Notes under the pieces: model-generated
Told to the model about the DNA's origin: nothing
The model's database searches: none
The model's input: only the letters and a program-made list of their open reading frames with translations
Assembly: GCA_016875395.1 (NCBI GenBank)
Contig: VGRF01000010.1
Span: 65,065-129,064, forward strand
DNA length: 64,000 nt
Direction: 5' to 3'
Origin: Deltaproteobacteria bacterium
Lineage (GTDB): Bacteria > Myxococcota_A > UBA9160 > UBA6930
In this document: one piece after another, positions 19,440 through 48,043 of the stretch
Layout: each line of letters begins with the position of its first letter
How positions within the stretch are numbered: the stretch's first letter is position 1
Program-made: the position numbers and the translations under genes

Positions 19440-19514
19440 TGGACGCTCCAGCGGAAGAGGCGAGATAGCCGAGCCAACGTGCTGCTGCCCCGAGTTCGCG
19501 GAATCGGAGGAGCT

Positions 19515-19612
19515 GCCTCGAAGTCGAACACTCCTCGGGGTAGGTCTGCATGGGCCGCAAGCGGAGCGCGCAGCGAGGCGAAGCCGAGCGAAGTAAACAA
19601 GGAGGGCCGGCG
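19515..19612 (+). repeat. Intergenic repeat family, copy R3 (20 nt before the phosphotransferase ATG)
   Basis: CCTCGAAGTCGAACACTCC...GGCCGCAAGCGGAGCGCGCAGCGAGGCGAAGCCGAGCGAAGTAAACAAGGAGG. Confidence 0.75.
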
Positions 19613-19631
19613 CCGCCACGACGGAGGCTTG

Positions 19632-22183: not shown

Positions 22184-22222
22184 AGCTGTGAGCCCGACGC
22201 GCCGCTGAAGAAGTCAGAAAAA

Positions 22223-22322
22223 CCTCGATGACGAACGCTCCACCAAAGCAAGTCGGCCGAGACCGCAAGCGAAGCGCGCAGCGAGCCGGAGTCTTCGGAG
22301 GCGAGCGGAGTCAACAAGGAAA
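22223..22322 (+). repeat. Intergenic repeat family, copy R4 (full length)
   Basis: CCTCGATGACGAACGCTCCACCAAAGCAAGTCGGCCGAGACCGCAAGCGAAGCGCGCAGCGAGCCGGAG..GCGAGCGGAGTCAACAAGGA. Confidence 0.8.
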
Positions 22323-22385
22323 GATCGATGCCGGCCGCGCGACGGCTCGCATTCTGCGCGGCTCTGACTTCACGGTGCGCCCCAA

Positions 22386-23567: not shown

Positions 23568-23634
23568 CGCGCGAATTCCCCTTTGATTCTGCGAGGGTGA
23601 ATGATAACGAGACGTACAGTATCGTAATGAGACG

Positions 23635-24288: not shown

Positions 24289-25713
24289 ATCCTGGCCCGC
24301 TACTTCTACGAACGCCTGAGCTACGAGAGCGCCGCGTTGTTAGGCGGCGAGAGCTCGCGCCACTTCGGGCACGCGGCGACGACGCTCGTGTTCGATGCGG
24401 GCCCGCTCGCGAACCCCGGCGGCGGCGTGAACTTCGATGCGATCCGCAGCGCGATCGAGTCGCGCCTGCACCTCGTACCGGCGTATCGCAGGAAGCTGCG
24501 CCGCATCCCGTTCGAGAATCACCCCGTGCTCGTCGACGACCGCGAGTTCAGCCTCGACTACCACGTGCGTCACACCGGTATCGCGCATCCCGGCGAGATC
24601 GCGCATGTGCAGAAAGTCGTGGCGCGCCTGCAAGCGCAGCGGCTCGATCGCTCGCGGCCACTCTGGGAATGCTGGGTGATCGAGGGGTTGTCGGGGGGGC
24701 GCTTCGCGCTCGTGGTGAAACAGCACGCGATCCTCGCCGAGAGCGGTGGCGACTTGATGCAGGTGCTGCTCGCGCAGAACGCCGACGACGAGTTCGAGCC
24801 CGCGCCGCCGTTCGTGCCGCGCGCGATGCCGAGCGCCGCCGAGCTCGTGCGCGACGAAGTGGTGCGCCAGCTGCGCCTGCCGCAGCGCGCGCTGCGGCGG
24901 CTGCAGGAGTTCGCGCGCGAGAGCGACTCGCTCTCGAACGAGCTGCGGCACCGCGCGCAGGGCGTCGCGAACCTGCTCGGCTACACGATTCGTCAGCTGC
25001 ACGAGACGCCGCTCAGCGGCGAGCCCGGCCCGCACCGCCGCTTCGAGACGCTCGTGATTCCGCTCGCCGACGCGAAGCTCGTGCACGAGGAATTGGGCGG
25101 CACCGTGCACGACGTGCTGCTCGCCGCGGTCGCCGGCGCCGTCGGCGCGTACTTCCGCATGCGCCACATGAATCCCGCCGTGATCGACTTCCGCGCGGCG
25201 GTGCCCGTGAGCCTGCGCAGCGGCGACAAGAACGAAGGCGTCGGCGAGTGGATCCTCGATCTGCCGATCTGGGAGCGCGATCCCGCGCGGCGCCTCGAGC
25301 AGATCCACGTGAAGACCGACGAGCTGAATCGCGAGAGCCCGGCGCTCGGCGCGCGCACGCTGAACAGCGTCGCGAAGTGGACCAGCTCGCGGACGCTCGC
25401 GCAGGCCGTGCGCGCGATCTCGGAGCGCACGCCCGTGAACGTGCGCATCGCGAACGTGCCCGGCCCGCAGACGCCCGTGTATCTGCGCGGCGCGCGCCTG
25501 CTCGAAGCGTTCGGCACCGTGCCGCTCGCGAAGAGCGGAGGCCTCGGCATCGCGATGTTCAGCTACGACGGAAAGCTGTGCGTGGGCGTGAACGCCGACT
25601 ACGACCGGGTCGCCGACCTCGACGTGTTCACGCGCCTGCTCGGCGAGTCCGTGCGCGAGCTCGTCGCCGCCGCGAAGCGCAGGTCGCGCCCGCTGAAGGT
25701 GGTGGGCCGCTAG
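24289..25713 (+). CDS. WS/DGAT-like (wax ester synthase / acyl-CoA:diacylglycerol acyltransferase family) protein, divergent active site, start codon unclear
   Basis: The frame opens immediately after the TetR TAA stop. The N-terminus ERLSYESAALLGGES..HFGHAATTLVF resembles the WS/DGAT N-terminus. The C-terminal half NVPGPQTPVYLRGARLLEAFGTVPL...LGIAMFSYDGKLCVGVNAD is typical. The HHxxxDG position reads KQHAILAESGGD. Confidence 0.6.
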   Translation: MLARYFYERLSYESAALLGGESSRHFGHAATTLVFDAGPLANPGGGVNFDAIRSAIESRLHLVPAYRRKLRRIPFENHPVLVDDREFSLDYHVRHTGIAHPGEIAHVQKVVARLQAQRLDRSRPLWECWVIEGLSGGRFALVVKQHAILAESGGDLMQVLLAQNADDEFEPAPPFVPRAMPSAAELVRDEVVRQLRLPQRALRRLQEFARESDSLSNELRHRAQGVANLLGYTIRQLHETPLSGEPGPHRRFETLVIPLADAKLVHEELGGTVHDVLLAAVAGAVGAYFRMRHMNPAVIDFRAAVPVSLRSGDKNEGVGEWILDLPIWERDPARRLEQIHVKTDELNRESPALGARTLNSVAKWTSSRTLAQAVRAISERTPVNVRIANVPGPQTPVYLRGARLLEAFGTVPLAKSGGLGIAMFSYDGKLCVGVNADYDRVADLDVFTRLLGESVRELVAAAKRRSRPLKVVGR

Positions 25714-25723
25714 CGGCTCGCGT

Positions 25724-26647
25724 CTACGACCGCTTCCGTACCCACGCCCCGATCTCGTCGATCGCGGCGTTCGCCTCGGGCAGGAACGGCGCGAACGCGT
25801 GCCACACGTGCGGCATCTCGGGGTAGATCGCGAGCGTCGCGTCGACGCCCGCGGCCTTCGCCTTCGCGGCGATGCGCGTCGAGTCGTCGAGCAGCACCTC
25901 GTGGTCGCCGACGTGGATCAGCAGCGGTGCGATCCCGCGTAGGTCGCCGTTCAGCGGCGAGCACAGCGGCGAGAGCGGGTCGGCGCGGCCCTGCGTGTAG
26001 ACGGCGCCCATCGCCTGAATGCCTTCGCGCACGCCGGGGATGACAGGATCGAGCGCGGCGCGCGTGCCGTAGGAATCGCCACTCGCGCTGAAGTCGGTCG
26101 CAGGCGAGATCGGGATCGCGCCGGTTGGCTGCGGGAGGCCGCGCTCCTTGCACGCGAGCAACGTGGCGAGCGTGAGGTTGCCGCCCGCGGAGTCTCCCGC
26201 GATGAAGATCGCGCGCGCGGGCGCGGCGCCGTTCGGGCCGTTGTTACGGAGCCAGCGGTACGCGTGCACGCAGTCGTCGAGGCCCGCCGGAAACGGATGC
26301 TCGGGCGCGAGGCGATAGTGCACGGCGAGCACCGCGACCCCCGCAGCCTTCGAGAGGCGCGCGCTCAGCGGGCGGTGCGAGTCGAGGTTGCCCGCGGTCC
26401 AGCCGCCGCCGTGGATGTAGAGCAGGCGCTTGTCAGGATCTGCGCCCTTCGCCACGAGCCACTCGCAGGCGACCCCCGCGAGATCGATGCGCTTCACGTC
26501 GGCGACGAGCTCCTGCGTCGAGCCGTCCACCTTCCAGTAATCGTTCACTGCCGCACGCGACGCTTCGATGTCCGCGCCCGCAGCGGCCATGCGCTTCGCG
26601 AGCGCGCGGAGATGAGCATCGACTTGCTTGGCTTGGGGGCTGGCCAT
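25724..26647 (-). CDS. Alpha/beta hydrolase, HSL/Aes-type esterase-lipase
   Basis: YIHGGGWTAGN (oxyanion HGGG), GDSAGGNL (nucleophile elbow) and C-terminal D...H. Confidence 0.8.
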   Translation of the reverse strand: MASPQAKQVDAHLRALAKRMAAAGADIEASRAAVNDYWKVDGSTQELVADVKRIDLAGVACEWLVAKGADPDKRLLYIHGGGWTAGNLDSHRPLSARLSKAAGVAVLAVHYRLAPEHPFPAGLDDCVHAYRWLRNNGPNGAAPARAIFIAGDSAGGNLTLATLLACKERGLPQPTGAIPISPATDFSASGDSYGTRAALDPVIPGVREGIQAMGAVYTQGRADPLSPLCSPLNGDLRGIAPLLIHVGDHEVLLDDSTRIAAKAKAAGVDATLAIYPEMPHVWHAFAPFLPEANAAIDEIGAWVRKRS

Positions 26648-28790: not shown

Positions 28791-29432
28791 ATGGCACACC
28801 CGACCCCCCTCGGCGAGCCGCTGCGAGTCGATCGCGCGGAGCGCACGCGCCAACGCCTGCTCGATGCGGCCGCTCAGTGCTTTGCGAACGCGGGCTACTC
28901 GAAGACGACCGTGGAGGAGATCGCCGCCTCGGCGCACGCGTCGAAGGCCGTCGTCTACCACCACTTCCGCGGCAAGGAGTCGATCCTCGAGGCGCTGCTC
29001 GAGCGCACGCTCGCGGATTGGGCACGCGTCTCCGACCTCGACGCCTACCTCGCGCGCGGCGCCGGCCTGCTCGCCGCCTTCGAGCGCTCGCTGCGCGCCT
29101 CGCTCGACTACGCGCGCCGCAGCCCGCTCCTGCGCGCGCTCTTCCAGCTCGATCCGGCGGTCGTGCTCGGCCTCGGCGGCAGCGCCGCGGTGCAGCGCAG
29201 CATGAGCGAGGCGCGCACGCGCCTGGTCGCCGCGGTGCGCGCGGCCATCGCGTCCGGCGAGCTGCGCAGCGACCTCGATCCCGAGTGCGCCGCCGACTTG
29301 TTACGGCTCGTGATGATCGCGCTCTGCGATCACCTGCTCTTCCCGCAGTGGATCGACGCCTCGGACGAGCGCTTCGTCGCCACTTGCGTCGACGTGCTGC
29401 AGCGCGGCCTGCGCGCGGAGGGCGCGCGATGA
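28791..29432 (+). CDS. TetR/AcrR-family regulator of the downstream efflux pump
   Basis: HTH TTVEEIAASAHASKAVVYHHFRGK. Overlaps the MFP start (ATGA). Confidence 0.85.
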   Translation: MAHPTPLGEPLRVDRAERTRQRLLDAAAQCFANAGYSKTTVEEIAASAHASKAVVYHHFRGKESILEALLERTLADWARVSDLDAYLARGAGLLAAFERSLRASLDYARRSPLLRALFQLDPAVVLGLGGSAAVQRSMSEARTRLVAAVRAAIASGELRSDLDPECAADLLRLVMIALCDHLLFPQWIDASDERFVATCVDVLQRGLRAEGAR

Positions 29433-34697: not shown

Positions 34698-34735
34698 CCT
34701 TGAAAATCGAAAGGCAGACTTTCTATTTTCAAGGT
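34698..34735. repeat. 38-bp AT-rich palindromic element, copy A
   Basis: CCTTGAAAATCGAAAGGCAGACTTTCTATTTTCAAGGT. 16-bp arms with one mismatch. Lies 12 nt upstream of the ATPase GTG. Confidence 0.9.
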
Positions 34736-34746
34736 AGGCTCGGCGC

Positions 34747-35934
34747 GTGATCGAACGCCCTCGCCTCCTGCGCGAGCTGCAGACGGCGCTGCGCCGCAGC
34801 CCCGTCGTGGCGCTCGTGGGCCCGCGCCAGTGCGGCAAGACGACGCTCGCGCGCACGCTCGTTCCGCCCGGCTCGCCTCGCTACTTCGACCTGGAGGATC
34901 CCGCGAGCCTCGCGAGCCTCGCCGAGCCGATTACCACGCTGCGTGAGCTGCGCGGCCTGGTCGTCGTCGACGAAGTGCAGCGGCGCCCCGACCTGTTTCC
35001 GGTGCTGCGCGTGCTGGCGGATCGACGCCCGCTCCGCGCGCGCTTTCTGATTCTCGGCAGCGCCTCGCCCGAGTTGTTGCGGCAATCCTCCGAGACACTC
35101 GCGGGACGCATCGAAGTGCTGACGATCGGAGGCTTCGATCTCTCGGAAGTGGGTGAGGACTCGCTCACGCGGCACTGGCGACGCGGCGGCTTCCCTCAGT
35201 CGTTCCTCGCGCGCAGCGAGGGCGACAGCTTCCAGTGGCGAAAGCAGTTCATTCAGACTTTTCTCGAGCGCGACCTCCCGCAGCTCGGCGTGCGCATCCC
35301 GCCGCAGGCGCTGCATCGCTTCTGGGCGATGCTCGCTCACTTCCACGGAAACGTGTGGAACGGCGCCGAGCTCGCACGCTCGCTCGCGTTGAGCCAGCCG
35401 ACCGTGCGCCAGTACCTCGACCTGATGACTGGCCTGTTCATGGTGCGGCAGCTCCTGCCTTGGCACGAGAACCTCGGCAAGCGCCAGGTGAAGGCGCCGA
35501 AGGTGTACGTGCGCGACGCCGGGCTCCTGCACCAACTGCTCGGCATCGCGAGCGACCGCGACCTGCAACGCCACCCCAAGCTCGGCGCGTCGTTCGAGGG
35601 CTACGCGATCGAGGAAGTGCTGCGGGCGGTGAGTCCTGCGCAAGCCTATTTCTGGGCCACGCATTCCGGCGCCGAGCTCGACTTGCTGCTCGTGAAGGGC
35701 GGGCGACGATTCGGCGTCGAGGTGAAGCACGCCGACGCGCCGCGCATCACGCCATCGATGCGCACCGCGATCGACGACCTCGGCCTCGAGCGCGTGACGG
35801 TGATCTATCCCGGCGAGCGCGCCTACGCCCTGTCAGACCGTGTGCACGTGCTCCCGGTCGGCGCTCTTGCCGACGGCGGCGCTACGCAGATCACGAAGTC
35901 CGCCAGGGCGCGTCAGGCGAAACGGAGACCTTGA
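34747..35934 (+). CDS. AAA+ ATPase with C-terminal DUF4143 domain (COG1373-type)
   Basis: Walker A LVGPRQCGKTTL and Walker B VVVDEVQ. The DUF4143-like region reads FLERDL...FWAMLAHFHGNVWNGAELARSL. GTG start. Confidence 0.8.
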   Translation: MIERPRLLRELQTALRRSPVVALVGPRQCGKTTLARTLVPPGSPRYFDLEDPASLASLAEPITTLRELRGLVVVDEVQRRPDLFPVLRVLADRRPLRARFLILGSASPELLRQSSETLAGRIEVLTIGGFDLSEVGEDSLTRHWRRGGFPQSFLARSEGDSFQWRKQFIQTFLERDLPQLGVRIPPQALHRFWAMLAHFHGNVWNGAELARSLALSQPTVRQYLDLMTGLFMVRQLLPWHENLGKRQVKAPKVYVRDAGLLHQLLGIASDRDLQRHPKLGASFEGYAIEEVLRAVSPAQAYFWATHSGAELDLLLVKGGRRFGVEVKHADAPRITPSMRTAIDDLGLERVTVIYPGERAYALSDRVHVLPVGALADGGATQITKSARARQAKRRP

Positions 35935-35966
35935 AAATCGAAAGGCAGACTTTCGATTTTCAAGGT
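35929..35966. repeat. 38-bp AT-rich palindromic element, copy B (perfect hairpin); contains the stop codons of both convergent genes
   Basis: CCTTGAAAATCGAAAGGCAGACTTTCGATTTTCAAGGT. The ATPase ends ...CCT TGA in the left arm and murI ends ...CCT TGA in the right arm on the other strand. Confidence 0.9.
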
Positions 35967-36805
35967 GCTGCCCGCTCGAAGCGCGGCGCCTCGGGCCAGA
36001 ACACTGCCGCGGTGCGCGAGACGTGCGCCGGATCGCCCGTCGTCAGCAGCCGCACTCCGGGCGCTCCGTTCGCGGCGTATTCGGGATGTCGCGCGAGGTA
36101 GTCCTCGAAGCTGTCCGCCACGACCTCGGGTTGCGAGAGGATGCGCACGCCGGCCGGCAGCTTCGCTGCGAACACGTCCTCGACCAGCGAGAAGTGCGTG
36201 CAGCCGAGAATCGCGCGATCGGGTTTGCCGCCACCGAGCTGCGCGGTCATCGCCTTCACCGCGTTCGCGACGATTGCCTCGAGCTCGGCGCGCGGCTGCG
36301 CGTTCTCGATCGCGGCGGCGAGCTCCGAGCACGGCTGCAGCACGATGCGCACGCGTGGACAGCGCTTGAAGATCTCCTCCGCGTACACGCCCGACGCGAT
36401 CGTGCGCGTGGTGCCGAACACCGCGATCACGTCGCGGTTGTTCTTCTGCGGATACTGCGGAGTCGTTACGGCCCACGGCGTCTGCGTCGCCGCCTCGACC
36501 GTCGGCGCCACGATGCCGACCACGTTGCGCCCCGCGTAGCCCGAGCCCGGCAGCCACTTGCGCTGCAGCGTGCGCAGCGCGACCGCCGTGGCGGTGTTGC
36601 AGCCGAGCACGACGAGCTTCGCGCCGAGCGCGAAGAGCCGCGCGACGCCGGCCTGCGTGAACGCGACGATCTCCGCCGACGCGCGATCGCCGTAGGGCGC
36701 GTTGGCGTGATCCCCGAGGTAGAGAAACGCCTGCTGCGGGAAGCGCGAAGAAAGCGCGCGCAGAACTGTTAGGCCGCCGAGCCCGGAGTCGAAGACGCCG
36801 ATCAT
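35960..36805 (-). CDS. murI: Glutamate racemase
   Basis: VFDSGLGGLTV, LVVLGCNTAT and ILGCTHF, with both catalytic Cys motifs. Confidence 0.9.
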   Translation of the reverse strand: MIGVFDSGLGGLTVLRALSSRFPQQAFLYLGDHANAPYGDRASAEIVAFTQAGVARLFALGAKLVVLGCNTATAVALRTLQRKWLPGSGYAGRNVVGIVAPTVEAATQTPWAVTTPQYPQKNNRDVIAVFGTTRTIASGVYAEEIFKRCPRVRIVLQPCSELAAAIENAQPRAELEAIVANAVKAMTAQLGGGKPDRAILGCTHFSLVEDVFAAKLPAGVRILSQPEVVADSFEDYLARHPEYAANGAPGVRLLTTGDPAHVSRTAAVFWPEAPRFERAAP

Positions 36806-38349
36806 GGGGCTTCACTCGGTCGCACATCGCGTGCTTTCACGGCTTCGAAGATCGCACGTGCAAGGACAGGAAACGCCGCCGCCTGGAACTGCGCATCGCC
36901 CATGTAACGCGTGACGATCGCGTCGTTGTCGGCCATGCGCTGCACCATCAGGTCCTCGATCAGCTTGCGCACGCCGAGCTCGAACTTGTCGAGCGGGTTT
37001 GCGCGCGCCGTGTCGATCACGCGCGGATCATTCGATGCCTTCTCTTGGATTTGTTGGAAGAACAGGCGGTCCTCCTCCGTGAACTGCGTGCCGAATCGTT
37101 CGTTCAGCAGCTCGATGATCTCCGAGAGCGGCGCTCGATCTTCCTTCGCCTTGGCGGTGCCCACCTCGCTCGGGCTCTTCACGCCCCACGGCTCGCCCTC
37201 GGCGACGTGGATCGGCCCAGAGAACAGGCGCTCGAGGCGGTAGTACTGAAGCTCGACGTCGTCGCCGAACCGAACTGTGAGGCGCTCGCGCTCATCGCGC
37301 AGGTACGGGAGCAAGAGCTTCCCGAACGAGTAGAGCTTCTCGAGCTCTGGATCGTTCCACGGCAAGACCTGGCTGACGAACGCGTACAGCTTCACGAACG
37401 CCGTTAGCTTCTCGCGGAACTCGCGGCGCGGTTCCTCCTCGAGCCCCTGGAAGCTGTCGACCGCGGGCTGGATGTGCTTCTGCATCTGCGCGTGGTCGGT
37501 CGCTGCGGCCTTCGCCGGCGGCTTGTAGAAGATGCGCGCGAACGCCTCGACTTCGCTCGCGTGGTAGACCTGCGCGAGATCGAGTTCGTGCTTCAGCGCT
37601 TCGAGCTGCGCCGGATCTGACGCCTCCGCGAGGCTGGTCGTGTCGTAGTAGGGCTTGAACGCGCGGTAGATGTTCTCCGCGTCGTTCACGAAATCGAGCA
37701 CGAACGGCGCTTCTTTGCCGCTCGCGGCGCGGTTCAGGCGCGAGAGAGTCTGCACGGCCTGCACGCCATCGAGCCGCTTGTCGACGTACATCGCTTGCAA
37801 GAGCGGCTGATCGAAGCCGGTCTGATACTTGTTCGCGACGAGCAGGATGTTGTAGTCGGGCGAGTCGAAGCGTTCGGGAAGCTGCGACTCGCTGATCGGC
37901 TTACAGCTCACCACGTCGCGATTCATCCCCGGCTCGGTGTACTCCTGGCCGTTCTCGGGATCGCGCACGCTCCCGCTGAACGCGACCAGCGGCCGCACGT
38001 CCGAGTAGCCGTGCTCCGCGATGTACGCCTGGAACGCGCGCATGTAGCGAACCGCGTGCAGGCGCGAAGACGTCACGACCATCGCCTTCGCACGGCCGCC
38101 GAGCTTCGCGCGCACCTTGTTACGGAAGTGCTCGATCATCACCTCCGTCTTCTGCTCCACGTTCACGGGGTGAAGCGTCATGAACTTCGCGAGCGCCTTC
38201 GCCGCCTGGCTCTTCGGCAGCGACGGATCCTCGGCCGCGGTCTTCACGAGGCGGGAGTAGGCCTTGTACGTCGTGTAGTTCGCGAGCACGTCGAGGATGA
38301 ACTCCTCCTCGATCGCCTGGCGCATGCTGTACGTGTGGAACGCCTCGGG
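36802..38349 (-). pseudogene. hsdR: C-terminal half of a type I restriction enzyme HsdR subunit (helicase C-lobe + C-terminal helical domain); N-terminal nuclease/motor half absent
   Basis: ORF 36802..38325 plus in-frame upstream APEAFHTYS. FHTYSMRQAIEEEFILDVLANYTTY, AMVVTSSRLHAVRY (motif IV), ILLVANKYQTGFDQPLL (V) and QTLSRLNR (VI). An in-frame TGA lies about 20 codons upstream of the Met. GC is lower than in the flanks. The stop overlaps the murI ATG (ATGA). Confidence 0.7.
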
Positions 38350-38554
38350 CGCAGTGGCCGATCGAGACGCCGAGCACGTTGCCCATCTTCAGCAGATCGC
38401 CGACCGCGGGCACCGCCTTCCCGTCCTCGAAGTCGCGCACGGCGGCTTCGGGGAGCGCGGCGCGGCGCGCGAGGTCCGCCATCGAGAGGCCGTTGTCTTC
38501 GCGCAGGCGGCGCAGCTTGCCGCCGACGTCGAGCTTGAGGAAGTCGTCGCTCAT
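38120..38554 (-). CDS. XRE-family HTH ORF; only the first roughly 65 codons look like real protein, and the rest runs out of frame across the hsdR fragment
   Basis: MSDDFLKLDVGGKLRRLREDNGLSMADLARRAALPEAAVRDFEDGKAVPAVGDLLKMGNVLGVSIG is a complete HTH_XRE domain. After about 38350 the sequence is frame-shadow. The ATG lies 3 nt after the E2 stop. Confidence 0.45.
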   Translation of the reverse strand: MSDDFLKLDVGGKLRRLREDNGLSMADLARRAALPEAAVRDFEDGKAVPAVGDLLKMGNVLGVSIGHCARGVPHVQHAPGDRGGVHPRRARELHDVQGLLPPREDRGRGSVAAEEPGGEGAREVHDASPRERGAEDGGDDRALP

Positions 38555-38557
38555 GGC

Positions 38558-39991
<1,434 letters not shown>

Positions 39992-40022
39992 GCGCTTCTC
40001 CGAGCCTGTAGTCACTAATGCC

Positions 40023-40136
40023 TCAATAATCGATCGCCCGCACGAGCGCGGAGAGGATTCGATCCGCGTTCGGCAGGTAGTGCTCTTCGAGCGTGTACGG
40101 GAACGGCAAAAACTCGGAGTCGCGGCGCGATGAGCG
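40023..40136 (-). pseudogene. Last roughly 35 codons of a 2-oxoacid dehydrogenase E1 beta subunit
   Basis: SEFLPFPYTLEEHYLPNADRILSALVRAIDY* with an in-frame TAA immediately upstream. No E1 alpha, and none of the rest of E1 beta, is present. Confidence 0.5.
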
Positions 40137-40140
40137 TTAG

Positions 40141-40344
<204 letters not shown>

Positions 40345-40357
40345 GCCCGCTGCCCGA

Positions 40358-41191
40358 TCACGAGCCGGTCGCGAGGAACTCGCCCACCACGCGCGCCAGC
40401 TCCGGGCCGTTGTCGAACATCACCGCATGCCCCGCGTTCGGGATCTGTGCGAGGCGCGCGTTCGCGATTACGCGCTCGGTCATCTTGCGCGCCACTTCTT
40501 CTGGGAGCATCGCGCTGCGTTCGCCGCGCGCGAGCAGCACGGGGCAGCGCAGCTTCGCGAGCGCGTCCCAGAGCGTGGCCTCGGTCTCGCGCAGCTCGTC
40601 CTCGGTGCCGAGCAGCTCGAGCAGCGCGGGGTCGAGCTTCGGCTCGAAGCGACCGTCGCGGCGCTGCACGAGGCTCGTGCGCGCGAGGCGATCCAGCGCG
40701 GCGCTCGCGGAGAGCGGATACGCGAGGCCGAGCAGCTTGCGGTACTCGGCGACGCTCTCGTAAGCGCGCGCCTGCTCGCTCACGTCGCTGGATGCGCGGC
40801 GCCAAGCATCGACCCCGAGCGCGGGGCCGCTGTCGATCATCACGAGGCGCGAGACGCGTTCGGGGTTCCGCGACGCGAAGAGCGCGGAGATGTTGCCGCC
40901 GAGCGAGTGGCCGACGAGCGCTGCGCGCTCGATGCCGAGCGCGTTGAAGATCTCGAGCAGATCGGCAGCGTGATCGAACAGGTGGTAGCGGCAGTCGAGG
41001 GACCAGCCGGAGTCGCCGTGCCCGCGCAGGTCGTGACGGATCGCTCGGTTGTCAGGGAGTGCGGCAGCGAGGTCGTCCCACACGAAGCGGTCGTTCGAGA
41101 AGCCGTGCACGAACACGACAGGTGAGGCGCCACCGCGCGAATCCGTCGCGGCCAGCTCGATTCCGTCGCGAGTGACGAGGCGCGCTTCCAT
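40358..41191 (-). CDS. Alpha/beta hydrolase, 8 nt downstream of the PKS
   Basis: Internal ATG (codon 127) of ORF 40358..41569. VVFVHGF, GHSLGG nucleophile elbow and a C-terminal GH. Confidence 0.8.
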   Translation of the reverse strand: MEARLVTRDGIELAATDSRGGASPVVFVHGFSNDRFVWDDLAAALPDNRAIRHDLRGHGDSGWSLDCRYHLFDHAADLLEIFNALGIERAALVGHSLGGNISALFASRNPERVSRLVMIDSGPALGVDAWRRASSDVSEQARAYESVAEYRKLLGLAYPLSASAALDRLARTSLVQRRDGRFEPKLDPALLELLGTEDELRETEATLWDALAKLRCPVLLARGERSAMLPEEVARKMTERVIANARLAQIPNAGHAVMFDNGPELARVVGEFLATGS

Positions 41192-41199
41192 GCGAACTC

Positions 41200-44100
41200 C
41201 TACGCGCCGCCGATCGAGGCGGCGAGGCGCTCGACCACGGCTTCGAGGTTGGGCTCGGCGAACAGCACCGCGGGCGGGATCTCGAGGCCCGCGGCTTCTT
41301 CGATGCGCGTGTGCAGCTCGACGCCCATCAGCGAGTCGAGGCCGAGCTCGCTGAGCGGGCGGTGCCAGTCGATGCGCGCGCGCGCTTCGGCGCTGAGGCG
41401 CAGCACGATCGCGAGCGCGGCGGCGACGATCTCGCGCAGCTTCGTGCGCCCGTCGGGCGAAGCGGCAGCGAGCTTCGAAGCGGCGCTCGCGTTCGCGGCG
41501 CCGAGCTCGCGCAGGATTGGGGCGCTCGCTGCGTTCCACGCGTTCGGCGCAGTGGCGTGCACTGCACACGCTGCGACGTCACTGCCTGCGATGCGCGAGA
41601 GCAGCGCGAAGGCCCCCGCGCTGGGCGCGACGCTCGCATCGAGCGCGAGGGCGGTCACCACATCACCGCGATCGCGGCGCGCGGCGGCGAAGTCCGCGAG
41701 CGGAATCTCGCCGAGCGTGAGCGAGGCGTTTGCGTCGCTCACGAGCCAGAGCGCTGCGCCCTGCTCCGCGGCGAACGAGGCGACCTCGCGAGCGCGCGGC
41801 GCGGCGTCGCCCGCGTCCGTTTCGTCGAGGACGAGCGCGACGAAGCGCAACGGCGCGCCGAGCTTGGCGCGCGCCGCCTCGAGGTCGTCGCTCGCACCGA
41901 GCCGCAACAACTCTCGCGGCGATTGCGCCGCAATCCAAGCGGCGAGCGCCGGAAAGCGCGCCTCGTCGCCGATCACCATCACGGCGCCGTTCGCGATGCG
42001 CTCGGACATCGAGAGCGGCACGAGCTGCGCGGACGCACGCTGCGCGAGCGAGATCACGACCTTCCCGGTGTGGCGCGCTTGCGCCATGAAGCGCACGGCG
42101 CGCCCGAGCTGTGCGACGGGGAAGACGCTGAGCGGGAATTCGAGCGCCGCGGGCGACGCAGCGATCGAGGCGCACAGCGATGCCGCGAGCTCGTCGGGCT
42201 TCGCGGCGAGTAGGCCCGCGGGATCGAGCGTGTGCAGCGAGACGTTGCGCGGTGCGCGCGAGAGCGTCGCGTGCGAGTCCCCGTTGCGAGCGAGCGCGAT
42301 GTAGCGGCCGCCGGGTGCGAGCGCGGCGAGCGGCGCGCCGTCGCCCGCGAGGTCGAGCGCGATGTCGAACGCGCCGGCCACTTCGGCGGGGCTGGATTCG
42401 GCGCGCGCTGCGACATTTCGGCCCGGCCGGAATGTCTCACCCGCGCGCGCGCCCAGCACGTGCGCTGCGCCGGCGCGCGCGAGGCTCTCGCGCTTGCGCG
42501 CGCTCCCGGCGCTCGCGGTGACCTCGGCGCCGAGCGCGCGCGCGAGCGCGACCGCCGCGTGCCCGATCGCGCCGCCCGCGGAGTGTACGAGCACGCGCTC
42601 GCCTTTGCTCACGCGCGCGAGGCCGTGCAGTGCGTAGTGCGCGACCGCGCGTGCGAGCGGGAGCGCGGCGGCGTTCTCGAAGCTGAGCGCTGCGGGCTTG
42701 CGCACGACGAGCGCGGCGTCCGTAACAACTCGCGAGGCGACGGACGCGCGCGCGAAGCCGAGGACCGCGTCGCCTGGCGCGAGCTCGCTCACGCCGGCGC
42801 CGACTTCGGAGACGATCCCCGCGACTTCGCAGCCAAGCCCGCGCAGCGCGTCGTCCTGTTCGAGGCCGAACGTGCGTAGAACGTCGAGGAACGAGAGGCC
42901 GGCGGCGTTCACCTCGATCGCGACTTGGCCGGGGCCGGGCGCGATCGGCTCGGACTCTCGCAACACCGCCGCAGAGAGGCGCTCGGGCGCTGCGGGCAGC
43001 GCGGTGAACTCGCGGCCGCGCGCGGGCTCGCGGCGCTCGCCGCTGGCGAGCGTGAGCGGCACGAGGCGCGGCGCGCTCGGAACGCCGTTGCGCGTCGCAC
43101 GCTGCGGTTCGTTCTCGCCCGATCCTTCGAGCTTTCGCCACGCGATCTCGTAGAGGAACGGGCCTGCCTCGGGCTTCGCGGGGCGCGCACGCCGCGCCAG
43201 TGCGATTCCTTCGAGCCGCGCGACGATCTCGCCACTGGCGCTGAGCAGCGCGACCTCCGCGCGCGCGCCGTCGAGCCGCGCGCTTGCGAAGATGTCGCCC
43301 GAGATGAACGCCGCACCGAGTGTGATGCGCTCGATCCCCGCAAGCTCGAAGCGTGTCGCGACGTCGCCGCGCGCGCGCTCGGCGAGGCGCGCGAGCAGCT
43401 GGAGACTCGCGTCGAGAACGGCGCCCGGAATCACCTCGTTGCTCGCGAGCGGCGCCGCGTGCGCAACGCGCGCGAGCGCTTCACCCGCGCCGAAGCTCGC
43501 CTCACGCAGCGCGCGGCGCTCCTTCGGTACGGACTCGCCCGCCGCGTCGAGCGCGGCGTAGAACGCATCGCGTGCTTCGGCGTTCGTGCAGCGCGCTTGC
43601 AGCGCCGCGAGGTCGAGCGCGCTCGCAGCGCTCTGTGCGCGCACGATGCGCGCGCTCGCGAGCGGCTCGAACGCTGCGTTCGAGAACGCGGCGCGCGTGG
43701 CGAAGCGCAGCGCAGCGCCATCCGCGGTTTCCCTCGCGGTGAGTTGCAGCGTCCGCGCGCCGCTCTTCGGAAGTGTGAGGGGCGCCGCGAGCGCGAAGTC
43801 CTCGACCCGAACGGCCGCATCGGGGAACGAGCGCTTCGCGACGCCGAGCGCGGTCGCGAGCAGCTCGCTCGGCGGAACGACGATCGCGCCGTCGCGCTTT
43901 GCCTCCGCGCCGAGCGCCTCGCGGAACAGGTCGATCTGCCAGAAGCGCTCGCCGCTCTCTGCGCTCTCGAGCTCGGTGGCGTTCGATCCGATCATGCCCG
44001 CGAACGGATGGGCGCTCTTGCGGCCGTCGACGCCGCGCTTGCCGCCGTACCAGTGCTCTTCGCGCTGGAACGGATACAGCGGCGTCGCAACGACTCGGCC

Positions 44101-46710
44101 CTGCGGGTGCACCGCGGCGAAGTCGATGCTCGCGCCGGCGCAGAAGAGCGCGCCGAGCGACGCGAGCATCTCGGCCTGATCGTCGGCCTCGCGGCGCAGC
44201 GACACCGCGACGTTCACGCGCTGCTTCGCGGTGCGGCCGATCTCTTCGAGCGAGAGCTTCAGCACAGGGTGCGGGCCGATCTCGAGGAACGTCGTGTGGC
44301 CCGCGGCGACTGCGGCGGCCGCCGCATCCGCGAAGCGCACGGGCTCGCGCAGGTTCTCGCCCCAATAACTCGCCGTGAGCGACTCACCCGCGACGACACC
44401 CGGCGTGACCGTGCTGAAGATCGGCACCGCGCTCGCGCTCGGCGCGACGCTCGCAACGCGCCGCGCGAGCTCGGGCGCGAGCGCATCCATGTGCGAGCCG
44501 TGCGAGGCGAACTCGACGCGCAGCTTGCGCGCGAAGACGCCGCGCGCCTCGAACGCGGCGACGACGGCCTCGATCGCGTCGATGTCGCCGGAGAGCACGG
44601 TCATGTTCGGGCTGTTCGCGCCAGCCACCGCAGCGCGGTTCCCGACGCGCGCGAGCTCTTCGTCGACTGCGCTCGCAGGCAGCGCGACGAGCGCCATCGC
44701 GCCGGGCGGCGCGAGCTCGCGCACCACCGCGCCGCGCGCGCACGCGATCAGCGCCGCGTCCGCGAGCGAGATCGCGCCCGCGATGTGCGCCGCGGCGATC
44801 TCGCCGCTCGAATGCCCGAGCACCGCGGCCGGCTTCACGCCCCAGTGCTCCCACTGCCGCGCGAGCGCGATCGCGATGCCGGTCAGGGCGGGCTGAAGCA
44901 CGTCGATGCGATCGAGGTCTTCGCCGCCGACTGCCCGCTCGAGCAGATCGCGGAGGGACCAGCGCACGTGCCTCCGCTGCTCCGCGTCCCACGCGTCGAT
45001 CGCCGCGGCGAACGCGGGCTCGCGCTCGAGGAGCGTCTTGCCCATGCCTGCCCAGTGCGTGCCGTGACCTGAGAACGCGAACACGACGCCCGTCGGTTTT
45101 GTGGCGACGCCGCTCGAAGTCGTTGGGGACGGCGCGCCCGAGAGGAAGCTCGCCAGCTCGCTCGCAAGCTCCGAGCGATCGCGCGCGACGACCGCCGCGC
45201 GGTTCGCGCGCAGCGTGCGGCGGCGTGCGTGCGTGTAGGCGACGTCGCGCAGCGCGGGGCCACCCCCGCGCGCCGCTTCTTCGCGAACGACATCGGCGAG
45301 CTCGACGAGCGCGCGATCGGTGTGCGCGCTGAGCGTCACGAGCCGCGGGCGCGCCGCCTCGTCTGCGAGCGCAGGCAGCGCAGGCGCTTCTTCGAGCACG
45401 ACGTGCGCGTTCGTGCCGCTGATGCCGAACGAGTTCACGCCCGCGAGTGCGCGCTCGGGATACGGCCAGGGCGCGAGGTCCTTCTGCACGCGGATCGGCA
45501 CCTTCTCCCACGGAATCTTCGTGCTCGGCGTCTCGAAGTTCGCCTGCGGCGGCAGCTCGCGGTGCTTCACGGCGAGCGTGGCCTTGATGAGTCCCGCGAC
45601 GCCCGACGCCGGTTCGGCGTGGCCGATGTTGCCCTTGACGGACGAGATCAGGAGCGGGCGCTCCTTCGCGCGGCCGGGGCCCATCACGTCCGCGAGCGCG
45701 GCGATCTCCACGGGATCGCCCACGACGGTGCCGGTGCCGTGCGTCTCGACGAAGTGGACGTCGCTCGGCGCGATGCCCGCGCGCTCGTAGGCGTCGCGAA
45801 TCGCTTGACCTTGGCCGAAGCGACCGGGCGCCATCATGTGCCCGCCGTCGCGGCCGTCGGCGCTGAAGCCGGTTCCCCTAATGACTGCGTGAATCGGGTC
45901 GCCGTTCGCGAGCGCGGCGGCGAGTGGCCGCAGCACGACGGCGCCGGCCCCTTCCGCGCGCACGAAGCCGTTCGCGCGGTCGTCGAACGCCTTGATCTTG
46001 CCGTCGGGCGCCATCATGCCCACGCGCGACAGCGCGATCATGCCTTCGGGCGTGATGAACACGTTCACGCCGCCAGCAATTGCGGTGTGCGTCTCGCCGC
46101 TCCACAGGCTCTGACACGCGAGGTGAACCGAGAGCAGCGAGGTAGAGCAGGCGGTGTCGATGAAGAAGCTCGGGCCGCGCGTGCCGAGCCAGAACGAGAT
46201 GCGCCCTGACAACACCGAGCCCGTGATGCCCGCAGCGCCCCACACGTCCATGTTGCGGCGGAAGCGATCCTCGCCGAGCACGGCGATGTGCTCGCGCGAG
46301 TAGTCCTCGTTCATGCGCCCGAAGATCACGGCCACGCGCTCGCCCATCAGCGCGTCGTGCGGAATGCCGGCGTCGTCGAGCGCGTCGAAGACGACCTCCA
46401 TCGCGTAGCGCTGGTGCGGCTCCATCGCGACGGCGTCGCGTGGCGAGAGGCCGAACACGAACGGATCGAACAGCTCGGGGTGATCGAGGAAGCCTGCGAG
46501 CTTCGACGAGATCTTGCCCGGCGTGCCCGGCCGCGGGTCGTAGATGTCGTCGATGTTGAAGCCGAGCTCGACGCGGTGCTGCGGCGGCTCGCTGATGCCA
46601 CTGCGCCCCTCGCGCAGCATGCGCCAGAACTGCTCGGGGCCGCGCGCGCCGCCGGGGAAGCGGAGCCCGATGCCGATGATCGCGATCGGCTCCGGAGCGC
46701 GCGGGATCAA
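41200..46710 (-). CDS. Single-module type I polyketide synthase: KS-AT-DH-ER-(KR-like remnant?)-ACP
   Basis: Part of ORF 41200..47106. KS: DTACSTSLL, HGTGT, GNIGHAEPASG. AT: GHSSGE, FASHG. DH: HPFAGM, LDASLQ. ER: an MDR fold with HSAGGAIGHAAV. ACP: LGLDSLMGVEL. The proposed TTG start at 46710 overlaps the upstream stop (TTGA). Confidence 0.9.
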   Translation of the reverse strand: MIPRAPEPIAIIGIGLRFPGGARGPEQFWRMLREGRSGISEPPQHRVELGFNIDDIYDPRPGTPGKISSKLAGFLDHPELFDPFVFGLSPRDAVAMEPHQRYAMEVVFDALDDAGIPHDALMGERVAVIFGRMNEDYSREHIAVLGEDRFRRNMDVWGAAGITGSVLSGRISFWLGTRGPSFFIDTACSTSLLSVHLACQSLWSGETHTAIAGGVNVFITPEGMIALSRVGMMAPDGKIKAFDDRANGFVRAEGAGAVVLRPLAAALANGDPIHAVIRGTGFSADGRDGGHMMAPGRFGQGQAIRDAYERAGIAPSDVHFVETHGTGTVVGDPVEIAALADVMGPGRAKERPLLISSVKGNIGHAEPASGVAGLIKATLAVKHRELPPQANFETPSTKIPWEKVPIRVQKDLAPWPYPERALAGVNSFGISGTNAHVVLEEAPALPALADEAARPRLVTLSAHTDRALVELADVVREEAARGGGPALRDVAYTHARRRTLRANRAAVVARDRSELASELASFLSGAPSPTTSSGVATKPTGVVFAFSGHGTHWAGMGKTLLEREPAFAAAIDAWDAEQRRHVRWSLRDLLERAVGGEDLDRIDVLQPALTGIAIALARQWEHWGVKPAAVLGHSSGEIAAAHIAGAISLADAALIACARGAVVRELAPPGAMALVALPASAVDEELARVGNRAAVAGANSPNMTVLSGDIDAIEAVVAAFEARGVFARKLRVEFASHGSHMDALAPELARRVASVAPSASAVPIFSTVTPGVVAGESLTASYWGENLREPVRFADAAAAAVAAGHTTFLEIGPHPVLKLSLEEIGRTAKQRVNVAVSLRREADDQAEMLASLGALFCAGASIDFAAVHPQGRVVATPLYPFQREEHWYGGKRGVDGRKSAHPFAGMIGSNATELESAESGERFWQIDLFREALGAEAKRDGAIVVPPSELLATALGVAKRSFPDAAVRVEDFALAAPLTLPKSGARTLQLTARETADGAALRFATRAAFSNAAFEPLASARIVRAQSAASALDLAALQARCTNAEARDAFYAALDAAGESVPKERRALREASFGAGEALARVAHAAPLASNEVIPGAVLDASLQLLARLAERARGDVATRFELAGIERITLGAAFISGDIFASARLDGARAEVALLSASGEIVARLEGIALARRARPAKPEAGPFLYEIAWRKLEGSGENEPQRATRNGVPSAPRLVPLTLASGERREPARGREFTALPAAPERLSAAVLRESEPIAPGPGQVAIEVNAAGLSFLDVLRTFGLEQDDALRGLGCEVAGIVSEVGAGVSELAPGDAVLGFARASVASRVVTDAALVVRKPAALSFENAAALPLARAVAHYALHGLARVSKGERVLVHSAGGAIGHAAVALARALGAEVTASAGSARKRESLARAGAAHVLGARAGETFRPGRNVAARAESSPAEVAGAFDIALDLAGDGAPLAALAPGGRYIALARNGDSHATLSRAPRNVSLHTLDPAGLLAAKPDELAASLCASIAASPAALEFPLSVFPVAQLGRAVRFMAQARHTGKVVISLAQRASAQLVPLSMSERIANGAVMVIGDEARFPALAAWIAAQSPRELLRLGASDDLEAARAKLGAPLRFVALVLDETDAGDAAPRAREVASFAAEQGAALWLVSDANASLTLGEIPLADFAAARRDRGDVVTALALDASVAPSAGAFALLSRIAGSDVAACAVHATAPNAWNAASAPILRELGAANASAASKLAAASPDGRTKLREIVAAALAIVLRLSAEARARIDWHRPLSELGLDSLMGVELHTRIEEAAGLEIPPAVLFAEPNLEAVVERLAASIGGA
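42413..42438. repeat. 26-nt exact copy (inverted) of the tetR-promoter palindrome, inside the PKS ER-domain coding sequence
   Basis: ACATTTCGGCCCGGCCGGAATGTCTC is the reverse complement of 47341-47366. It encodes ..GETFRPGRNV.. in the PKS. Confidence 0.85.
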
Positions 46711-47135
46711 ACGCGCTCCCAGATCAGGTAGCCCGTGGGTGCCTGCGCGTTGATCGTGAGCGGCGGCGTCTCGAGGATCAGGCGGTCGCCGTCGATCTTG
46801 AAGATGCGTTCTTGGTCGACCCCGACCCACTGCGGCAGCGACGCGACTTCGACGTGGTGAACGACGCGGTTGCCCTTCGTCTCGAAGCGCCCGCAGTAGG
46901 CGTTGAACTGATCGAAGTTCACGTTCTTCGCGGTGTCGGCGAGGTCGCTCGACTGCGGCTTCAAGCGATCCGCGCCCATGAACGCCGCCGACATGAAGCC
47001 CTGCGCGTTGTAGAAGAGGTAGCCGCGCGGCCCCTTCCCGAACGGGTACGAGACGTCGCCGTTCGGCATGCGCAGCTCGAACGAGAGCAGCTTCCAGGAG
47101 CCGCAAAGCGCGTGGCGGCCAGCGTCGTCGCTCAT
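46707..47135 (-). CDS. Lipocalin-like domain protein, first gene of the PKS operon
   Basis: 142-aa ORF. GSWKLLSFELRMPNGDVSYPFG..PRGYLFYNAQGFMS is typical of the small lipocalin-like beta-barrel family. Confidence 0.55.
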   Translation of the reverse strand: MSDDAGRHALCGSWKLLSFELRMPNGDVSYPFGKGPRGYLFYNAQGFMSAAFMGADRLKPQSSDLADTAKNVNFDQFNAYCGRFETKGNRVVHHVEVASLPQWVGVDQERIFKIDGDRLILETPPLTINAQAPTGYLIWERV

Positions 47136-47340
47136 CCGAACTTCCTCGATGGCTTTAGAGAGAGGTGGTCGCGAGGAGTCTCGGGGGTGGGCTCACTGCG
47201 CGCGGCGAAACAGCGTTCGCGCCAAACCAAGGACGCGGATGATGGGCGGATTCACGCGCGCTGTCTGTGCGGCGCGCCCGAAACCGCTGACTCGAAGCCC
47301 GCGCGCGTCTAATGCGGGGCGAGTCGATTGGCCCCCACGC

Positions 47341-47366
47341 GAGACATTCCGGCCGGGCCGAAATGT
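47341..47366. promoter_or_regulatory. Imperfect palindrome 42-67 nt upstream of the tetR ATG; candidate TetR operator
   Basis: GAGACATTCCGGCC|GGGCCGAAATGT(GTC). It sits in the divergent intergenic region between the PKS operon and tetR. Confidence 0.35.
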
Positions 47367-47407
47367 GTCACCTGGGTAAAGTGCGCCGACCTCGGGAGGG
47401 GGGACGC

Positions 47408-48043
47408 ATGGCGGGTGCGGGCGAGTTCTCTCAGCGGCGCGCCGGCAAGGCGGCGACGCAGGAAGCGATCCTCGTGGCGGCGACCCAGCTCTTCATGGAG
47501 CGCGGCTACGAGGGCACCACGGTCGCCGACGTCGCGGAGCGAGCGGGCGTCTCGCGCGCGACGGTGTTCTGGCACTTCAGCGACAAGGGCGGGCTGTTCC
47601 GCGAGGCATTCGTGCGGCTGTTCGCGCCGTTCCGAGACTCGATGGCGAACGATTTCCACGATCTCCCGGCCCCAAAGCGCCTGCACGAGCAGCTCGGCGC
47701 CGCGGAGCTGTTCGCACGCCAGCACGGCGCCGAGCTCGCGGCGTTCCTGCGCTGGGCCTTCGAGTCGCCCGAGCACCGCGAGGGCGTGATCACGGCACTG
47801 CTCGACCTCAATCAGCGCTACCAGGGCGTGCTGATCGAGACGGTCGCCGAGATCGCCGGCCCCGAGCGCGACGCGCGCGCCCTGGGCGGCGCGCTTTGGC
47901 TCGCGGTCGATGCGAACTTCTTCCTCTCGATCTTCGACAAGAGCGACCGCGGCTTCGAACAACGCGCCGCCGCCGCCCGCGCACTCGCGGACCTGATCAT
48001 CGCGGACGCGGAGACGAGCCGAGGGGCGGCAGCAGCGAAGTAG
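47408..48043 (+). CDS. TetR/AcrR-family regulator divergent from the PKS operon
   Basis: Internal ATG (codon 33) of ORF 47312..48043, preceded by GGGAGGGGGG. HTH TTVADVAERAGVSRATVFWHFSDK. Confidence 0.85.
   Translation: MAGAGEFSQRRAGKAATQEAILVAATQLFMERGYEGTTVADVAERAGVSRATVFWHFSDKGGLFREAFVRLFAPFRDSMANDFHDLPAPKRLHEQLGAAELFARQHGAELAAFLRWAFESPEHREGVITALLDLNQRYQGVLIETVAEIAGPERDARALGGALWLAVDANFFLSIFDKSDRGFEQRAAAARALADLIIADAETSRGAAAAK

Follow-up and report, generated by a model that had tools for sequence, protein, structure and literature searches.

An eroded ketoreductase in a MAS-related polyketide synthase encoded together with a lipocalin-like protein and a hydrolase in Myxococcota

In polyketide synthase (PKS) modules which contain dehydratase (DH), enoylreductase (ER) and ketoreductase (KR) domains, the structural subdomain of the KR (psiKR) is located between DH and ER and not behind the ER, and mycobacterial systems of the MAS type employ FadD, PapA or Chp-type partner proteins. 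Modular PKSs commonly harbor reductive domains that are vestigial, and the label 'KR0' occurs in the literature, so that a dead KR alone is familiar from these enzymes and not very surprising. The echinoderm synthases SpPks1 and CrPKS, with the domain order KS-AT-DH-psiMT-ER-KR0-ACP (KS, ketosynthase; AT, acyltransferase; MT, methyltransferase; ACP, acyl carrier protein), possess a KR without the catalytic Tyr and make unreduced aromatic polyketides (PMC11414698). Here, we describe a type I PKS gene of the myxococcotal assembly GCA_016875395.1 which is located on contig VGRF01000010.1, within a stretch of 64,000 nucleotides (positions 65,065 to 129,064 of the forward strand; hereafter referred to as the window, in whose coordinates all positions are given). 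The gene (41200..46710, minus strand) encodes a protein of 1836 amino acids from a TTG start at 46710, reads KS-AT-DH-ER-KR remnant-ACP and is placed between genes for a lipocalin-like protein and an alpha/beta hydrolase.

Among the described systems, MAS resembles the window PKS in that it is the best match in the Protein Data Bank (PDB) for the whole protein (E 1e-198) as well as for its ER (phmmer E 5e-40), and both enzymes are single modules which begin at the KS and have neither a loading domain nor a thioesterase (TE). In addition, the AT of the window protein resembles those of the methylmalonyl type, and among its relatives the long forms have the complete domain order of MAS. In contrast to MAS, the catalytic subdomain of the KR is dead, psiKR is deleted, the DH is devoid of the YGP motif, and the enzyme is paired with an alpha/beta hydrolase and a Lipocalin_5 protein. 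SpPks1 and CrPKS share the reducing-type domain order with DH and ER present and a KR without catalytic Tyr, and they are iterative non-reducing synthases (PMC11414698); they represent the closest functional precedent for the proposed non-reducing activity of the window PKS. However, these are animal enzymes with a pseudo-methyltransferase domain and a full-length KR rather than a gutted remnant, the paper names no lipocalin or hydrolase partner (PMC11414698), and the likeness is taken at the level of the general relationship between type I PKSs and fatty acid synthases (FASs). The KR0 modules of cis-AT PKSs similarly retain a dead KR as a folded scaffold next to functional KS, AT and ACP domains, whereas the erosion in the window protein is far deeper, with a KR region blank in Pfam and the structural half gone, concerns a stand-alone module, and is shared, stepwise by lineage, by a whole gene family. 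Three aspects are new here: how far, and how stepwise, the erosion has proceeded in a single family, the fact that it affects a stand-alone module, and the strict pairing with an uncharacterized Lipocalin_5 protein and a dedicated hydrolase in uncultured Myxococcota. None of the four proteins of the locus, including the divergently encoded regulator, reached a curated cut-off in NCBIfam: the Pks2-type model scored 778 bits against a cut-off of 2400, and an assignment as polyunsaturated fatty acid (PUFA) synthase was rejected, as the omega_3_PfaA model scored 275 bits against a cut-off of 1010 and the protein has a single ACP. Neither NCBIfam above cut-offs nor the literature on the lipocalin-like partner yielded a close characterized cluster, which had been named, with PUFA and alkylresorcinol systems as examples, as a finding that would change the interpretation of the locus.

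The central result concerns the stretch between ER and ACP. The sequence-only reading had described the protein as KS-AT-DH-ER, followed by a stretch of about 200 residues (roughly 41450-42040) without recognizable KR motifs and the ACP. Pfam reproduces this order (KS, residues 7-393; KS-AT linker; AT, 543-860; DH, 914-1178; ER, 1259-1553; ACP, 1760-1829) and delimits the gap to residues 1554-1759 (41434..42051, minus strand). This region, hereafter region X, was revised from a spacer to an eroded and catalytically dead catalytic subdomain of a KR. As the sequence-only reading had stated, no functional KR is present: the KR family PF08659 was matched neither by the whole PKS at E<=0.01 nor by region X alone at E<=10, region X alone matched no other Pfam family at E<=10 either, and a phmmer search of the C-terminal 300 residues against the PDB recovered the ACP only. 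A hidden Markov model (HMM) of 70 canonical KR catalytic subdomains, which were taken from other PKS hits, gave no significant match in the window PKS or elsewhere in the 64 kb. Comparison of profiles was more sensitive. A profile of region X, built from the orthologues P0001-P0011 and the longer relative P0013, aligned globally to the profile of the 70 KRs by hhalign at 96.7% (E 4.8e-10) over 181 columns that span the whole KR, and at 94.5% (E 7.8e-8) in local mode, while one reversed and ten column-shuffled control profiles all remained at or below 0.3%. Based on this strong match and the nil result of the controls, region X is considered a homolog of the KR catalytic subdomain.

In the same alignment, the glycine-rich NADPH loop GGxGxLG is aligned to GDEARFP in region X. 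About 30 residues comprising beta2-alpha3-beta3, which are still present in P0010 and P0013, are deleted relative to canonical KRs, in which the beta2-beta3 segment binds the 2'-phosphate, and in the window protein and in P0002 a further deletion of eight residues falls within the canonical segment of the catalytic Tyr. The other orthologs have Ala at the Tyr position as judged from an alignment to the motif by eye, and in our reading of the hhalign alignment the position of the Ser is not conserved and that of the Lys is occupied by Arg. An AlphaFold2 (AF2) model of region X (pLDDT 82) consists of alternating beta and alpha elements. Foldseek retrieved no PDB structure for this model at E<=1e-3; the longest alignments, which were not significant, were to a PKS KS-AT-DH-KR structure and to a short-chain dehydrogenase/reductase (SDR). 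A search of the region X profile against 1.84 billion representative proteins returned four strong matches, all of them members of the same family, and hence no bridge to KRs or to any other domain. Taken together, region X is a gutted KR catalytic half which is still folded in a Rossmann-like manner but catalytically dead; the intact KR that modeling or HMM searches might have uncovered was not found, and all that remains is this remnant.

The earlier argument that the stretch offers too little room for a complete KR including the structural subdomain requires correction, since some 200 residues behind the ER roughly correspond to a somewhat shortened catalytic subdomain and the half that is missing is the structural one in front of the ER. 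Between DH and ER, the window PKS has a spacer at the site of psiKR (residues 1181-1240, 42991..43170, minus strand), of which only the final strand before the ER aligns to MAS. The distance from the end of the DH to the start of the ER is 75 residues in the window PKS versus 178 in the related locus L003 and 223-272 in the long-form relatives, and because of this difference psiKR is regarded as deleted. Both halves of the KR are hence damaged, psiKR by deletion and the catalytic half by gutting; about 60-70 residues were lost from the catalytic half in addition to the whole structural half.

The two remaining reductive domains are preserved to different degrees. The DH-like double hot-dog domain (residues 896-1180, 43171..44025, minus strand) is only weakly recognized by Pfam (~31 bits) and had no phmmer match in the PDB, whereas its region aligned to canonical DHs by hhalign at 99.8% (E 8e-30). 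His901 and Asp1100, the latter within a DxxxQ motif, are at the catalytic positions. However, VPKERR stands in place of the YGP motif, which is absent family-wide, and the Pro of the HxxxGxxxxP motif is substituted by Asn following an insertion of six residues. The ER (residues 1241-1553, 42052..42990, minus strand), a domain of the MDR fold, has a similarly weak Pfam score (33-37 bits) but is readily matched by the ER of CurK (E 3e-33) in addition to that of MAS. It retains the NADPH motif HSAGGAIG, which is invariant in the orthologue group, and is the best preserved of the reductive domains.

In contrast to the reductive part, the condensing part of the protein has all residues in place. 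The KS (residues 7-393, 45532..46692, minus strand; 260 and 126 bits for the Pfam N- and C-domains) carries Cys188 in DTACSTS, His324 in HGTGT and His364 in NIGHAE, and these three residues are invariant among 17 PKSs of the family. The four residues preceding the DY motif of the KS read RMNE in the translation and fit neither the VMYH nor the TNGQ kind of gatekeeping residues. In the AT (residues 543-860, 44131..45084, minus strand; Pfam 254 bits), the active-site Ser634 is located in GHSSGE and Arg659 is present, both of them likewise invariant in the 17 proteins. The domain carries RIDVLQP and FASH motifs and is closest to ATs of the methylmalonyl type; among PDB structures, the methylmalonyl- or ethylmalonyl-type ATs of Lsd14, Tyl and DEBS scored 200-229 bits as compared to 137-142 bits for CurL and Pks13. 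Based on these scores, our best guess is a methylmalonyl-type extender. As a side observation, the AT elbow reads GQSMGE or GQSLGE, with His replaced by Gln, in a distant group of long forms (L015-L031) and in L006, in which FASH and the Arg are kept. The ACP (residues 1760-1829, 41224..41433, minus strand; Pfam PP-binding, E 1e-12, 48 bits) matches ACPs of known structure such as that of PpsC (E 8e-10), and Ser1793 in its motif LGLDSLMG is invariant in all 17 proteins. The protein ends seven residues behind the ACP match and no TE (PF00975) was detected by Pfam, as had been noted. The protein is a genuine type I PKS module of the cis-AT kind and related to the MAS-like synthases, but lacks the KR and psiKR features that define full reduction.

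The same division into a condensing and a reductive part is apparent from the rates at which the domains diverge. The orthologue group (P0001-P0011) comprises proteins of 1836-1861 residues which are 60-100% identical and none of which contains PF08659. Mean identity of ten orthologs to the window protein is 0.92 for the KS, 0.84 for the AT and 0.79 for the ACP, but 0.64 for the ER, 0.59 for the DH and 0.56 for region X. Accordingly, Nei-Gojobori dN/dS values between the window and L011 rise from 0.10 (KS) and 0.22 (AT) to 0.39 (ER), 0.56 (X) and 0.58 (DH), 4-6 times the KS value for the three latter domains; the absolute values are inflated, as dS is compressed by the extreme codon bias at third positions (GC3), and only the ranking is meaningful. 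Beyond the orthologs, the canonical KR model found no KR in the 17 family PKSs, which include long forms of about 2000-2170 residues, except for a weak match of 21 bits in P0078 from L006, where, as judged by eye, an Arg aligns with the catalytic Tyr and the Gly loop has disappeared. The distance from the ER to the Ser of the ACP is 241-251 residues in the group of the window protein, 266-308 in most long forms, 239 in L031, and merely 90-92 in L004 and L014, from which region X is wholly absent. Similarly, 42-77, 178 or 223-272 residues separate DH and ER depending on the lineage, and psiKR is correspondingly absent, partial or present. The DH has lost its His in L005 and its Asp in L004, L014 and L006, and the GGxG motif of the ER is degraded in L006 and L031. 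As L003 and L004, whose PKSs have 2001 and 1659 residues, have their downstream genes in common, this difference in size is attributed to deletion in orthologous loci. The PKS frame is nevertheless intact over 5.5 kb in the window and complete in 16 related loci, which yield full-length proteins. The pattern points to strong constraint on KS, AT and ACP and to relaxed constraint on the reductive loop with lineage-specific decay, and it indicates that the loss of the KR is old and tolerated across the whole family. The designation 'reducing PKS' given in the sequence-only reading is hence doubtful; with the whole reductive loop relaxed and decaying, the enzyme is more likely non-reducing in practice.

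The PKS does not occur alone. The neighborhoods of six homologous PKSs have the order Lipocalin_5-PKS-Abhydrolase_1 with the same tight spacing and different flanks; in L006 the contig starts inside the PKS gene, so that only PKS and hydrolase are visible. A scan of the lipocalin alignment over the species representatives of the Genome Taxonomy Database (GTDB) gave 80 loci. In all 23 loci from metagenome-assembled genomes (MAGs) of Myxococcota that encode a lipocalin of at least 51% identity, the PKS lies directly downstream of it, and the hydrolase is present in these loci wherever the contig extends past the PKS. None of the lipocalins of at most 47% identity, which are from Chloroflexota, cyanobacteria and others, is followed by this PKS; in a Parabeggiatoa locus (L039) a more distant KS-AT is located upstream of the lipocalin. 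The neighbors of the 57 lipocalin homologs that are not linked to the cassette PKS share no common context. The trio was found in at least four different genomic contexts. Additional cassette genes, namely fatty acyl-AMP ligase (FAAL), phosphopantetheinyl transferase (PPTase) or SDR genes, were sought in the related loci and none were found, and sharing outside of the trio amounts to lineage-level synteny. SDR genes within 8 kb of the cassette occur in three of about 24 loci (L004, L014 and L019), which by our own estimate is compatible with chance. The lipocalin, PKS and hydrolase genes are thus a conserved and vertically inherited unit of at least 23 species-level genomes of Myxococcota. Describing the locus as an orphan is valid within the window, which encodes no other KS, AT or ACP, but not in the sense of unique. 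Several of the MAGs that carry the cassette are labeled Deltaproteobacteria, and others (L009, L010, L014, L019, L020 and L025) Spirochaetales or Spirochaetaceae. The cassette genes of the latter share 54-87% identity with their counterparts in Myxococcota MAGs, and one isolate name contains 'MYXO'; these are probably mislabeled bins of Myxococcota.

The lipocalin-like protein is encoded by the first gene of the cassette (46707..47135, minus strand), has 142 residues and no signal peptide, and belongs to Lipocalin_5 (PF13924; E 2e-29, 102.7 bits versus a gathering cut-off of 25). With 82-90% identity among close orthologs, it is the best conserved accessory part of the cassette. Its AF2 model (pLDDT 87) is an antiparallel beta-barrel with eight main strands. 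No PDB entry was matched by sequence, and Foldseek returned weak calycin-type barrels with TM scores of at most 0.5, among them an uncharacterized Bacteroides protein, nitrobindins, FABP4, ToxS and the spirocyclase OssO. OssO, at rank 18, is similar in that accessory proteins of this kind are small cytosolic beta-barrels next to a PKS, yet at about 10% identity and with uncharacterized or binding proteins ranking higher the resemblance is one of fold only. A literature search found no functional study of PF13924/Lipocalin_5, nor one of this family that pairs a lipocalin-like protein with a PKS. A number of residues are invariant or nearly so (W14, S18, E20, R22, Y39, Y42, R57, D64, Y80, H93-H94, Q108, R110, W139 and R141), and such a set of conserved polar and aromatic residues would suit a specific site for binding or catalysis better than an unspecific pocket for lipids.

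The alpha/beta hydrolase (40358..41191, minus strand; 277 residues, ATG start) matches Abhydrolase_1 (E 3e-28). Its triad of Ser96 (in GHSLGG), Asp120 and His255 as well as the HG oxyanion motif (residues 29-30) are invariant in 18 cassette hydrolases, and a close characterized homolog was found neither in the PDB nor in NCBIfam. Its proposed role as the likely release enzyme is supported by the invariant triad and by its presence wherever the contig extends. The cassette hydrolases further share an invariant RxDGRxEPxxDP motif (residues 177-188) between Asp120 and His255, which by position may be part of a cap or lid region and could be an element of substrate recognition.

Based on the family-wide death of the KR, the constrained KS, AT and ACP, the drifting reductive loop and the two conserved, linked partners, we favor, by a modest preference, the hypothesis that a formerly MAS-like reducing module now acts as a non-reducing condensing enzyme, with the lipocalin-like protein handling the beta-keto product and the hydrolase releasing it. 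The PKS would descend from a fully reducing, MAS-like ancestor of the order KS-AT-DH-psiKR-ER-KR-ACP which lost ketoreduction; without ketoreduction in cis, DH and ER would receive no substrate and drift as a scaffold, leaving KS, AT and ACP as the working parts. A starter drawn from the acyl-CoA or acyl-ACP of the cell might be condensed once or iteratively with an extender, probably of the methylmalonyl type, which would leave a beta-keto thioester on the ACP after a single round and a poly-beta-keto thioester after iteration. The cytosolic lipocalin-like barrel, co-translated with the PKS, may bind the hydrophobic starter or product, or may template and cyclize the beta-keto chain, and the Ser-Asp-His hydrolase could off-load the product by hydrolysis, lactonization or acyl transfer. 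The TetR-family regulator encoded divergently might sense a ligand of the pathway.

Several observations weigh against a purely non-reducing enzyme. The ER is retained in every member of the family, and mostly with its NADPH motif; both His and Asp of the DH are present in the window protein, so that residual or repurposed catalysis by DH and ER is possible; and dN/dS values below 1 in DH, ER and region X indicate that some constraint is left, be it structural or catalytic. Moreover, a housekeeping reductase of the FabG type acting in trans would leave the locus unmarked, the structure search with region X was not significant on its own, and a common kind of product across the family is an assumption. 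An alternative that had been raised before is a KR in trans. The PKS would then be a MAS-like iterative reducing synthase in which the beta-keto group on the ACP is reduced by a discrete enzyme encoded elsewhere, such as FabG or another SDR, and the DH and ER in cis finish the cycle, giving a saturated, probably methyl-branched fatty acyl chain to be released or transferred by the hydrolase and bound by the lipocalin-like protein. The catalytic His and Asp of the DH and the NADPH motif of the ER are intact and invariant in the 11-member orthologue group, the similarity to MAS of the protein as a whole and of its well-preserved ER, which has been deleted in no family member, would fit this idea, as would the methylmalonyl-like AT, and KRs acting in trans are treated in the literature, for example in a paper on the iterative ketoreductase SiaM (PMC4046962). 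However, no SDR or KR gene is present in the window and none is conserved beside the cassette, the YGP motif of the DH is missing family-wide, and sister lineages with the same cassette have lost the DH dyad or the ER motif. In addition, psiKR, the hub around which the DH/ER/KR region of MAS and FAS is organized, has been deleted, and the DH evolves about 5-6 times faster than the KS. We regard reduction in trans as a less likely but serious alternative.

It might also be speculated that DH and ER are not vestigial but repurposed. Hot-dog 'DH' domains serve as product-template (PT) or thioester-hydrolase (TH) domains in other iterative PKSs. The DH-like domain could thus act as product template, cyclase or thioester hydrolase, in a similar fashion as the PT domain of fungal non-reducing PKSs (NR-PKSs) or the 'DH' of 6-MSAS-type enzymes, and the ER might reduce a C=C bond, be it in an unsaturated starter or in the product after its release, resulting in a partly reduced, unusual product without any KR. 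The retention of the His901/Asp1100 dyad while the dehydratase-specific YGP motif is gone would fit such a domain, the NADPH site of the ER is conserved in most members, and the Myxococcota genomes covered have kept DH, ER and region X in frame, with dN/dS values of less than 1. Then again, dyad and ER motif are not universal in the family, constraint on the DH is, together with that on region X, the weakest in the protein, and no positive evidence for such an activity was obtained; we consider repurposing to be rather improbable. The deletions and the relaxed constraint in the reductive loop could, finally, reflect a pseudogene in progress and a cassette that makes nothing, which appears hardly tenable: the frame is intact here and in the 16 related loci, an identical protein is encoded on seven contigs, KS dN/dS is ~0.1 with all condensing residues invariant, both partners are strongly conserved with the hydrolase triad invariant, and the start/stop overlap of the lipocalin and PKS genes is conserved. 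A more far-reaching version of the favored hypothesis of a non-reducing synthase, which we put forward as a speculation with rather low expectations, is that the PF13924 barrel, from a family with no characterized member, is a catalytic partner which templates, cyclizes or otherwise processes the reactive beta-keto chain of a synthase that was converted, in parallel with SpPks1, into a non-reducing and possibly iterative one, and that the cassette represents a new bacterial biosynthetic system. If true, this would be the first enzymatic function for Lipocalin_5 proteins and lead to a new class of metabolites from uncultured Myxococcota.

Within a single family, decay can thus be followed from a KR that is dead yet full-length, via a gutted remnant, to its total loss, with the condensing core and the partners under strong selection. 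The family is thus a natural experiment on which parts of the modifying region of MAS- and FAS-type enzymes are dispensable, which bears on PKS engineering. For genome mining it implies that counting DH and ER may mislabel a module as 'reducing' when its KR is dead. The compact cassette of three genes, which pairs a PKS with an uncharacterized Lipocalin_5 protein, should express easily.

With respect to gene layout, the three minus-strand genes of the cassette are translationally coupled, as was initially proposed and as follows from the open reading frames (ORFs), the junctions and the gene calls of the JGI. The TGA stop of the lipocalin gene and the TTG start of the PKS gene share a 4-nt TTGA overlap ('gag cgc gtt tga tcc'), which is kept in related loci, and 8 nt separate the TAG stop of the PKS gene from the ATG of the hydrolase gene ('tag gagttcgc atg'), both in agreement with the sequence-only reading. 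A protein 100% identical to the window PKS (P0001, 1836 residues) is encoded on seven metagenome contigs, and on an identical metagenome contig the JGI calls are TetR with 211, lipocalin with 142, PKS with 1836 and hydrolase with 277 residues. The TetR-family gene (47408..48043, plus strand; TetR_N E 4e-19) is divergent as stated before, while its start is more likely the ATG at 47408, which gives 211 residues, than 47312, because the JGI calls have this length and a GGGAGG ribosome-binding motif precedes the ATG. Among the related loci, only those of the close orthologs (L001, L002 and L007-L013) have a divergent TetR gene. The 272 bp between the divergent genes (47136..47407) presumably contain promoter and operator; a scan for operators yielded imperfect inverted repeats only, and a promoter scan of the same region found no match to the sigma-70 consensus. 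Further TetR-like matches in the window are located at 23692-23949 and 28845-29015.

The window has a G+C content of ~70%. Apart from the domains of the PKS itself, it encodes no KS, AT or ACP, and searches of its 64 kb gave no hit to a PKS-type KR or to an SDR. The immediate neighbors of the cassette are housekeeping genes (ThiC, NUDIX, 2-oxoacid dehydrogenase E2 and AcrB). Two loci, L001 and L002, are syntenic with the window and have, behind the hydrolase gene, genes for a glutathione S-transferase (GST), an HPPD-like glyoxalase, an aromatic amino-acid hydroxylase, E1 alpha/beta and E2. In the window the E2 gene (38558-39832; E3-binding and catalytic domains, lipoyl domain not detected) is located directly after the hydrolase gene, at a distance of ~525 bp, followed by a T1R_D3-like ORF of 507 residues, an Asp/Glu racemase-like ORF and an AAA_14/DUF4143 ATPase in a stretch of lower GC fraction (0.664 at 36-38 kb). 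The arrangement at 34700-40360 thus resembles the outcome of a deletion or an insertion. At a distance of 15-30 kb from the PKS gene, a lipid-flavored set of genes (11179-26647) comprises three cytochrome P450s (11179-12852, 12440-13615 and 22386-23843), two major facilitator superfamily (MFS) transporters, a WS/DGAT wax-ester synthase (24337-25713), an Abhydrolase_3 esterase (25724-26647) and an acyl-CoA carboxyltransferase (15838-17442), which could supply a carboxylated extender. Of all related loci, L004 alone encodes a type III PKS next to the cassette, and the window has no such neighbor, so that an alkylresorcinol-type pathway was rejected as a general feature. In L004 (1-5414) the trio is preceded by genes for this type III PKS, an ICMT-type methyltransferase, an FAD oxidoreductase, a P450 and two SDRs, a set resembling that of alkylresorcinol or alkylquinone pathways, and its PKS is the shortest form of the family, with region X deleted. 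This set could be a hint that, in this lineage, the product of the type I PKS feeds the type III PKS.

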